The notes: a model not told the origin generated them from the sequence alone. Positions 3,858 through 4,113 are shown, numbered from the stretch's first letter. The stretch: 8,756 nt of DNA from a virus (IMGVR_UViG_2695420412_000001), one strand, 5' to 3'. Numbers and translations are program-made.

Positions 3858-3873
3858 ATAAATCACTCTCTTA

Positions 3874-3918
3874 CTGTAGGGGTAAGAGGATTTTACTATT
3901 TTTCTCGCTGTAGGGGTA
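3874..3918. repeat. Two copies of an 11-bp direct repeat ctgtaggggta (3874-3884 and 3908-3918), 34 bp apart, in the putative promoter/leader of the minus-strand gene
   Basis: Exact 11/11 match read directly from the sequence. On the minus strand they flank a TAAAAT -10-like hexamer, just upstream of the SD and ATG of the 164-aa gene. Confidence 0.5.
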
Positions 3919-4067
3919 CACGAGAACCACCGAGCCTGATGTGGTTAAAAGACAGGCATACTAATAAACACTGCACTGTGTATTTATTCCAACGAGTGAA
4001 TACACGGAGCAATGTCGCTCGTAACTAAACAGGAGCCGACTTGTTCTGATTATTGGAAATCTTCTTT

Positions 4068-4093
4068 GCCCTCCAGTGTGAGGGCGATTTTTT
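4068..4093 (+). terminator. Intrinsic terminator candidate on the plus strand, directly upstream of ea10 (tL-type terminator of the PL operon)
   Basis: gccctc (4068-4073), loop cagtgt, gagggc (4080-4085), then g-a-TTTTTT (4088-4093). Perfect 6-bp GC-rich stem plus T6. The reverse strand lacks a T-run after the stem, so it is unidirectional. Confidence 0.6.
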
Positions 4094-4113
4094 ATCTATG
4101 AGGATATGAATAG

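Follow-up and report, generated by a model that had tools for sequence, protein, structure and literature searches.

A probable two-strand regulatory module, with counterparts in P22 and lambda, in the early-left operon of a lambdoid phage

The viral DNA analyzed here, IMGVR_UViG_2695420412_000001 (8756 nucleotides (nt), referred to as the window), represents the early-left (pL) operon of a lambdoid phage, with pL transcription running on the plus strand. Between the genes N and ea10, the window carries an accessory gene on the minus strand (the ‘cargo’), and a spacer of 256 base pairs (bp), the subject of this work, separates the start codons of the cargo and of ea10. With a probability of about 0.72, this spacer is a compact two-strand module that combines a sieB-type promoter for the cargo, the template of a sas-type antisense RNA on the pL strand, and the small RNA (sRNA) PreS with its terminator tL2a. 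The parts of the module are homologous to mapped elements of phages P22 and lambda, and covariation is observed in the structure formed by the pL strand; where the cargo transcript starts, and that the antisense RNA is expressed and acts on the cargo in this phage, are predictions derived from the homology. The original prediction had described the spacer as a regulatory region, and the promoter homologous to that of P22 bears this out. The coordinates of all features are collected in Table 1.

A predicted sieB-type promoter upstream of the accessory gene

In the RefSeq record of P22 (locus L007), the sieB promoter is annotated at 1247-1217 and the ‘sieB RNA start site’ at 1210, which is the A of ACCCCTACAG. 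The minus strand of the spacer aligns with this promoter position for position, and the -10 hexamer lies at the same alignment position in both phages, with TAAAAT in the window and TAAACT in P22. The original prediction had singled out TAAAAT, at 3895-3890 on the minus strand between the two copies of a direct repeat, as the -10 of a dedicated promoter for the accessory gene that lacks a good -35. The hexamer and its place are as described, and the proposal of a dedicated promoter is supported by the homology to the annotated P22 feature. The missing -35 is confirmed as well: the promoter falls below the threshold of the consensus scan, and both -35 candidates, TGTACC (3920-3915, with a 19-nt spacer, as the P22 feature implies) and TACCCC (3918-3913, with a 17-nt spacer), are weak. 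By its sequence, the promoter is classed as a weak sigma-70-type promoter of the sieB class, one that has been identified previously. The gene layout agrees with this assignment, with the promoter located upstream of an anti-pL gene between N and ea10 as it is in P22, lambda and VT1-Sakai. In VT1-Sakai, Lambda_2E9, P22 and lambda, the position of the cargo is filled by sieB, which is also transcribed against pL.

Homology to P22 places the predicted start of cargo transcription at A3883. With this start, the mRNA would begin with 10 nt of copy 1 of the repeat (ACCCCUACAG), while copy 2 would occupy about -34 to -25, over the poor -35. Ranade and Poteete reportedly mapped the sieB start by RNase protection in 1993, and a two-base change in the -10 is said to have inactivated the sieB promoter in their hands.

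Several other signals were considered for this sequence and rejected on inspection. A sigma-32-type -10 (CCCCAT) at the repeats lacks a fitting -35 and a suitable spacing; moreover, transcription in P22 is mapped to the A preceding CCCC. For sigma-70-dependent pausing at TACAGT, the corresponding sequence in P22 and VT1-Sakai reads TACAGA. A LexA box and a boxA-like reading of the conserved core described below were both rejected as well, and a Chi site was dismissed given that GCTCGGTGG differs from GCTGGTGG.

A putative antisense RNA on the pL strand

The documented antisense input at loci of the sieB type is the RNA sas (PMC13397905, PMC12197685). According to reviews, sas of P22 blocks the synthesis of SieB and permits that of the internal product Esc, and small-RNA sequencing published in 2026 detected P22A-sas, with a length of 127 nt, in infected cells only (PMC13397905). 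The published P22A-sas is identical to positions 1175-1301 of the P22 locus and consists, in this order, of the complement of the start codon and ribosome-binding site of sieB, a first CUGUAGGGGU, the complement of the -10, a second CUGUAGGGGU, and ACCACCGAGCCUGACGUGGUUAAAAGACAGGCA. Because this RNA spans both copies of CUGUAGGGGU, the repeats are located inside a documented regulatory RNA of the pL strand. The window is homologous to P22A-sas over 3874-3958 in the alignment, and the putative sas homolog, the ends of which are approximate, would cover the complements of the cargo start codon, of the Shine-Dalgarno (SD) sequence and of the mRNA 5′ end, together with both repeats, two hairpins and the conserved core. 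The original prediction had postulated a separate regulatory input for the accessory gene. An input of this kind does exist at this type of locus, but the documented one is the antisense RNA, which the prediction had missed.

The PsieB-sas system of P22 and lambda occupies the same site, between an N-type gene and ral/ea10 and antisense to pL, and shares with the window the same stretch of ~85 bp, which includes the mRNA 5′ end, both repeats and, at its far end, the 33-nt core. The window differs in having an HkaP-type cargo instead of sieB and, with it, a different cargo-specific 5′ part of the antisense RNA. The hkaP region of HK620 (GenBank AF335538; Clark et al. 2001) is 99% identical to the window over 3855-3960 and has a minus-strand gene for 164 amino acids (aa) at the same position; the differences are that HK620 has no ea10, so that cIII comes next, and that the N-terminus of hkaP departs from that of the window gene. 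In the HK620 record, the promoter, the repeats and the antisense RNA carry no annotation.

A general likeness to the RNA-IN/RNA-OUT pair of IS10 can be discerned. In IS10, the antisense RNA-OUT is transcribed from the strand opposite to that of the mRNA and overlaps the mRNA 5′ end. At the locus in the window, too, the mRNA 5′ end would face the loop of an antisense hairpin. Of the two arms of this hairpin, one is the complement of the ribosome-binding region, and the other lies over promoter DNA that is absent from the mRNA. By this analogy, pairing could begin at the loop. The sequences of the two systems are unrelated, however, and the window has a second, paralogous hairpin and an antisense RNA that seemingly derives from the long transcript of the pL operon rather than from a dedicated promoter.

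Conservation of the repeats and of the 33-nt core

The two exact copies of CTGTAGGGGTA reported by the original prediction are present at 3874-3884 and 3908-3918, 34 bp apart from start to start, and their likeness extends to 14 of 16 nt (TCTTACTGTAGGGGTA versus TCTCGCTGTAGGGGTA). When the 11-mer was sought in other prophages, the pair recurred with the same spacing in lambda, P22, HK620 and VT1-Sakai, as well as in HK446 and others, with diverged flanks. In every locus of the first set that was fetched, including lambda upstream of sieB, there are two copies of CTGTAGGGGT 34 bp apart, and a diverged repeat pair was found in ~60 additional distinct sequences. As far as sequence comparison goes, conservation at a fixed spacing settles that the repeat pair is real.

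Loci with this cassette were gathered from one genome per species and from IMG/VR, with the invariant core as the anchor; chance matches and lambda contamination, which accounted for many of the genome-scan matches, were filtered out. The loci fall into three groups. Group A (lambda, P22, HK620 and the window) has both copies of the repeat in the form CCCCTACAG, in sense orientation and at a distance of 34 bp. In group B (Enterobacter, Kluyvera, Edwardsiella, Atlantibacter, Trabulsiella and many viral contigs), both copies have the form CCCCAACAA or a close variant of it, the distance is usually 33 bp, and the -10 is TAATCT. In group C (SfV, Klebsiella, Salmonella, Pantoea and others), the core is followed by a single hairpin and then by an SD sequence and ATG. 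The T and A forms of the repeat (CCCCTACAG twice or CCCCAACAA twice) are never mixed in one locus, which amounts to a single contrast between two clades, and both copies differ between the clades at the same two positions.

The core of 33 nt is conserved in all these groups. As ACCACCGAGCCTGAnGTGGTnAAAAGACAGGCA, it is near-invariant in lambdoid prophages from Escherichia, Salmonella, Shigella, Klebsiella, Enterobacter, Pantoea, Rahnella, Edwardsiella and other genera, with examples in SfV (L012, ~1200-1233), in a Klebsiella phage (L010, ~1238-1271) and in many of the loci L014-L229. The published cluster of P22 sas reads includes the core, and the core is kept where the repeat pair is absent, as in SfV and in Klebsiella prophages. 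In group C, the core may supply the -35 (TTCACC) of a promoter with TATCCT or TATGCT as the -10, but this role does not account for the invariance of the group C ‘spacer’. An H-type pseudoknot within the core (ACCAC/GTGGT and GCCTG/CAGGC) was considered and found to be unsupported: the stems are essentially invariant, and the few variants either break pairs without compensation or change the outer pairs inconsistently. The pattern used to collect the loci held part of the core fixed in this test, and such a pseudoknot is possible, without covariation.

Two side observations concern the quality of the collected sequences. In the Salmonella phage GE_vB_TR (L011, labeled ‘UNVERIFIED’), one base is missing from the G-run of the distal repeat and one from the A-run of the core, probably through homopolymer sequencing errors rather than true variation. 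Sequences identical to lambda occur in a number of unrelated assemblies (L047, L058, L059, L064, L089, L090, L093, L100, L109, L124 and L132), from organisms that include Pseudoxanthomonas, Nocardioides, Lacrimispora, Shewanella, Chromatium, Vibrio sinensis and Paenibacillus; several of these contigs are very short or have low coverage, and the lambda-identical sequence in these assemblies is almost certainly lambda DNA contamination.

Hairpins formed by the pL strand

On the plus strand, the GGGG loop of hairpin 2 and, on either side of it, the upper four base pairs of the stem derive from copy 2 of the repeat. The comparison of variants favors the pL strand: the folding energies of hairpin 2 summed over 55 unique variants are -540.6 kcal/mol for this strand and -327.8 kcal/mol for the other one, and the hairpin was found again in the RNAalifold consensus. 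In the alignment, 97.5% of the cells are paired, compared with 90.8% in shuffles, and none of 500 shuffles reached as high a value, although the sequences in the set are related, so that the shuffle statistics overstate the significance. Independent of this kinship are the strand asymmetry and the slid controls, in which only 36-53% of the cells are paired. Compensatory changes are found at three pairs, including UA/AU and UA/CG/GC (pair 40-58). The pair that closes the loop is U-A in 26 sequences and A-U in 5, and this is the base that separates the repeats of group A from those of group B. Three positions are mostly G-U, and such pairs are valid on the pL strand only. The covariation and the G-U pairs, which fit that strand only, thus support a constraint on copy 2 as an RNA hairpin on the pL strand.

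Hairpin 1, closer to the cargo, consists of the arms CUCUUACU and GGUAAGAG around the loop GUAGG, with a U-rich run behind it. The cargo mRNA is complementary, at its 5′ end, to both the loop and the 5′ arm of this hairpin. Different stems take its place in P22/VT1-Sakai, in 689R2 and in L099, and each of these, like the one in the window, is more stable on the pL strand.

PreS and the terminator tL2a

The original prediction had placed a strong terminator acting on the plus strand only immediately before ea10. The terminator and its one-directional action were recovered, at 4066-4093, but the element is more than a barrier before ea10: it corresponds to tL2a, the 3′ end of the sRNA PreS, also known as LPR1. 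In lambda, LPR1, since renamed PreS, is an Hfq-dependent sRNA of ~88 nt that is processed to ~68 nt and encoded between ral and ea10, and its 3′ hairpin and poly-U tail constitute tL2a of the early-left operon; it is present in the lytic cycle only, where it activates the translation of dnaN and represses alaS (bioRxiv 10.1101/2024.10.31.621285). Positions 3962-4113 of the window are a nearly exact match to the ral-ea10 spacer of lambda, with identity over 4006-4094. The matching segment folds at -30 kcal/mol (z = -3.1), with the terminator hairpin and a 5′ stem. By sequence and by its 3′ end, it is classified as a PreS homolog, whereas the Hfq dependence, the lytic expression and the effects on dnaN and alaS pertain to lambda. 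The site upstream of ea10, the G+C-rich hairpin and the U6 tail are the same in the two phages; in the window, ral and sieB are replaced by the HkaP-type gene, so that PreS comes ~50 nt past the core and not after ral. The same hairpin is annotated as tL2A in HK620, and the tL2 terminator cluster was reportedly described by Luk and Szybalski in 1983. Inspection by eye revealed no convincing promoter for PreS, and a literature search did not yield the position of lambda tL1.

An imperfect inverted repeat with arms of 22 nt, located just upstream of the predicted PreS 5′ end and overlapping it, is kept in lambda, VT1-Sakai and HK620 and may be a processing structure. A second terminator-like hairpin (AACGCTTCACTCGAGGCGTT followed by TTTCG) is found on the plus strand between ea10 and cIII, at 4506-4525; its near-identical counterpart in HK620 is labeled tL2B (L008, 1752-1773).

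Proposed mechanism and points against it

Taken together as a module, these elements would work as follows. In the lysogen, pL is repressed and the weak sieB-type promoter would transcribe the cargo, which lies between N and ea10, from position 3883. Upon infection or induction, N-modified, terminator-resistant transcription from pL would cross this promoter in the opposite sense, and the resulting RNA would be the sas homolog, complementary to the cargo mRNA at its 5′ end, its ribosome-binding site and its start codon. Stabilized by hairpin 2 and the core, this antisense RNA would pair with the mRNA 5′ end and ribosome-binding site and, along with convergent transcription over the promoter, turn the cargo off in lytic growth. 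Such a shut-off would parallel the action of sas on sieB in P22. The same pL transcript would yield PreS at tL2a. The two copies of the repeat probably arose by duplication of an ancestral leader.

Several points, in addition to the kinship of the sequences in the covariation set, weigh against this scheme. It is by homology that a transcription start, an active promoter and an antisense RNA are assigned to this phage. Neither in the window nor in P22 did consensus scans detect a promoter on the plus strand from which a sas-like RNA could start, and the published lengths of sas differ, with 105 nt given in a review and 127 nt by small-RNA sequencing. Hairpin 1 belongs to group A only, being weak in lambda and absent from group B. 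In group B, copy 1 varies at positions 6-9 with no matching change in copy 2. Finally, the scheme leaves the likeness of the two copies without an explanation.

Alternative explanations

The likeness of the copies could be a relic without function, left after an ancestral leader, with its mRNA 5′ end, SD sequence and start codon, was duplicated in tandem and the upstream copy decayed into the -10/-35 region. This explanation concerns only the origin of the repeats and is compatible with the two-strand module; its chances are judged to be somewhat short of even. Group C has a single copy, with the core, one hairpin containing a C-rich loop complement, an SD sequence and ATG. The 3′ arm of the upstream unit in group B still reads AAGGA, which resembles an SD sequence, and the independent drift of copy 1 in that group fits a relic. 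Moreover, GAGAAATCGGATAAAC, which follows the upstream copy, resembles the sieB start region of P22, VT1-Sakai and lambda (shuffle p ~0.04, 0.03 and 0.02, respectively). Each of these similarities is weak, however, and there is none for the window's own cargo or for group B. In addition, the difference of both copies between the clades at the same two positions would require either two independent duplications or a concerted change.

A further possibility goes beyond the module as proposed. The ~85-bp cassette (mRNA 5′ end, -10, hairpin 2 and core) might be a portable ‘lysogen-only’ switch that sits before unrelated cargo across the Enterobacteriaceae, in which the GGGG loop of hairpin 2 serves as a second docking site for the 5′-CCCC of the mRNA, in a two-loop recognition of the RNA-IN/RNA-OUT kind, and the 33-nt core binds a conserved partner, which would be a protein of the host or, should sas act in trans as well, one of its RNAs. 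The GGGG loop is indeed complementary to the 5′-CCCC of the cargo mRNA, but the scheme in its entirety is considered speculative and rather unlikely.

According to the original prediction, the promoter would be dependent on a factor, or bound by a repressor, through the repeats. The repeats would then be DNA sites of a phage or host transcription factor that activates or represses the promoter of the accessory gene. They do bracket the -10 and lie over the poor -35 and the start site, and they are conserved in many phages, with the two forms kept apart by clade. Nevertheless, this explanation is improbable and the claim did not hold up: copy 1 is the mRNA start by homology, and copy 2 is accounted for by the RNA hairpin, with its covarying stem and G-U pairs valid on the pL strand only. 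The base of the distal copy that differs between the clades belongs to the loop-closing pair and is changed on both sides. The proximal copy in group B varies at positions where the distal one is constant, and with a spacing of 33-34 bp, the copies are offset by roughly a quarter of a helical turn. Since the cargo proteins are mutually unrelated, the cargo product is excluded as an autoregulator, and no such factor is mentioned in the literature that was read.

It is similarly doubtful that hairpin 1, together with its U-rich tail (3867-3903 on the plus strand), serves chiefly as an intrinsic terminator of pL transcripts made without N, or as a site at which their synthesis pauses, with the repeats being incidental. 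The consensus scan flags 9 pairs followed by ATTTTACTAT, and in L099 and P22, too, a stem is followed by T-rich sequence. Such a tail is found there because the complement of the -10 is rich in A/T. Only 3 of the pairs are G-C, the T-run is interrupted, the hairpin is weak in lambda and missing from group B, and the published P22A-sas reads extend ~80 nt past it.

By itself, the 11-mer pair is only mildly unusual, with two further exact 11-mer pairs less than 60 nt apart in the window (512/532 and 7849/7879; TCCCTCGTTTT and GAACTGGAAGC) and with exact direct repeats of 11 nt or more arising in 30 of 5000 shuffles (0.6%) that keep the dinucleotide composition of the 256-bp region, but a chance duplication has a negligible probability and is refuted by the conservation of the pair at the same spacing between diverged flanks and by its diverged versions elsewhere.

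The cargo and its diversity

Judged by its sequence, the cargo in the window is not sieB but encodes an unrelated 164-aa protein of the HkaP type, with a coiled-coil N-terminal half and a C-terminal CxxC...CxxC motif. The protein matches phrog_1244, a family of unknown function (E 4e-53); there was no Pfam match at the curated cut-off, and the single PADLOC match was weak (E 0.019). The hkaP gene in the same position of HK620 is annotated as ‘putative superinfection exclusion protein’ on positional grounds only. An in-frame ATG is present at codon 23 of the cargo (3791-3789), with GGAGG (3803-3799) 7 nt ahead. It recalls the internal start of Esc at codon 25 of P22 sieB, and the combination of GGAGG and ATG could be a by-product of Gly-Gly codons.

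In the conservation profile, the conservation of the cassette stops directly after copy 1. Behind the cassette, at least 15 unrelated cargo genes were found, with 35 distinct N-termini of 25 aa among the loci L014-L229, and the site looks, from these sequences, like a hotspot for the exchange of prophage accessory genes. Examples of the N-termini are MKRSDVLTQCLINT..., (M)IAELSAAMAA(L/I)KET..., MSQKDDIPVF... and MLEKQTMKVACPDC...; several of the cargo proteins have DYEERHMPP in the N-terminal region.

Genomic context and spread of the spacer

Downstream of ea10, open reading frames (ORFs) of the sizes expected for cIII (54 aa), gam (138 aa), bet (261 aa) and exo (226 aa) follow in the same order as in lambda. 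Over 901 bp, the locus is 99.9% identical to phage ev099, and up to the terminator, it is ~99% identical to HK446 and vB_EcoP-720R6. Operators of the 434 type, ACAA-N6-TTGT, are present at 1572-1630 and 2746-2813, apart from scattered matches with one mismatch. Each of the two clusters has three sites, as fits OR and OL of the 434 type, and therefore, pL should be located near 2780-2830. A motif scan detected no such dyad within 3858-4113, in agreement with the earlier statement that the repeats are not 434 operator sites.

The spacer is present, whole or for the most part, in 2243 of 5426 complete Escherichia coli genomes (41%), and none of the eight best-matching E. coli records listed has an annotated feature under it. 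The covariance models of Rfam 15 yielded no match within 3858-4113, and neither sas nor PreS was matched by any model in this search; the only significant match in the window is Lambda_thermo (RF01804), the cIII thermoregulator, at 4542-4600 (88.5 bits, E 4e-21).

Table 1. Positions of the genes and regulatory elements in and around the spacer, in window coordinates
Feature	Position	Strand	Basis and remarks
N gene	2969-3370	+	ORF call
Accessory (cargo) gene, 164 aa, ATG at 3857-3855	3363-3857	-	ORF and translation; same ATG annotated in HK446 and 720R6
Approximate homolog of P22 sas	3855-3975	+	Alignment; ends approximate
Spacer, 256 bp, from cargo ATG to ea10 ATG (4114)	3858-4113		
Predicted 5′ untranslated region of the cargo mRNA, 26 nt, SD sequence AAGAGAG at 3872-3866	3858-3883	-	Sequence; start placed by homology to P22 sieB
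Hairpin 1, CUCUUACU / GUAGG / GGUAAGAG, then U-rich run	3868-3888	+	Folding
Repeat copy 1, promoter-proximal	3874-3884	.	Sequence; minus strand ACCCCTACAG (3883-3874) is the predicted cargo mRNA +1 to +10
sieB-type promoter	3890-3920	-	Position-for-position alignment with the annotated P22 sieB promoter, TGTACCCCTACAGCGAGAAATCGGATAAACT
Hairpin 2, 10-bp stem, bulged C (3908), GGGG tetraloop 3913-3916	3902-3926	+	Folding, covariation
Repeat copy 2, distal	3908-3918	.	Sequence; as DNA, overlaps the -35 region; on the plus strand, upper pairs and GGGG loop of hairpin 2
33-nt core, nearly invariant, ACCACCGAGCCTGATGTGGTTAAAAGACAGGCA	3926-3958	.	Conserved in groups A, B and C
Imperfect inverted repeat, 22-nt arms 3968-3989/3994-4015, core GTGTATTTA...TGAATACAC	3968-4015	+	Repeat scan
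PreS (LPR1) homolog, ~88 nt; processed ~68-nt form from ~4026	4006-4094	+	Identity to lambda; 5′ end from the published length only
Intrinsic terminator tL2a, stem 4066-4073/4080-4087 (8 bp, G+C-rich), loop 4074-4079, T6/U-tract 4088-4093	4066-4093	+ only	Scan, folding
ea10, 122 aa, next gene of the pL operon	4114-4482	+	

Implications

The promoter, the antisense RNA, the sRNA and the terminator have all been published for P22 or lambda, and in this respect, the finding is already known. The hairpin with the GGGG loop and its supporting covariation, the occurrence of the cassette with many unrelated cargo genes, and the unexplained 33-nt core may go beyond what was found in print. For genome annotation, the value lies in the content of the spacer, namely a prophage promoter, the template of an antisense RNA and the sRNA PreS, each with a published counterpart. 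The cassette marks a site of lambdoid prophages at which accessory genes expressed in the lysogen appear to be exchanged, and several of these genes could have anti-phage functions. If the duplicated motif and the core prove to have roles of their own, this would add detail to an antisense system from 1993 that has barely been revisited since.

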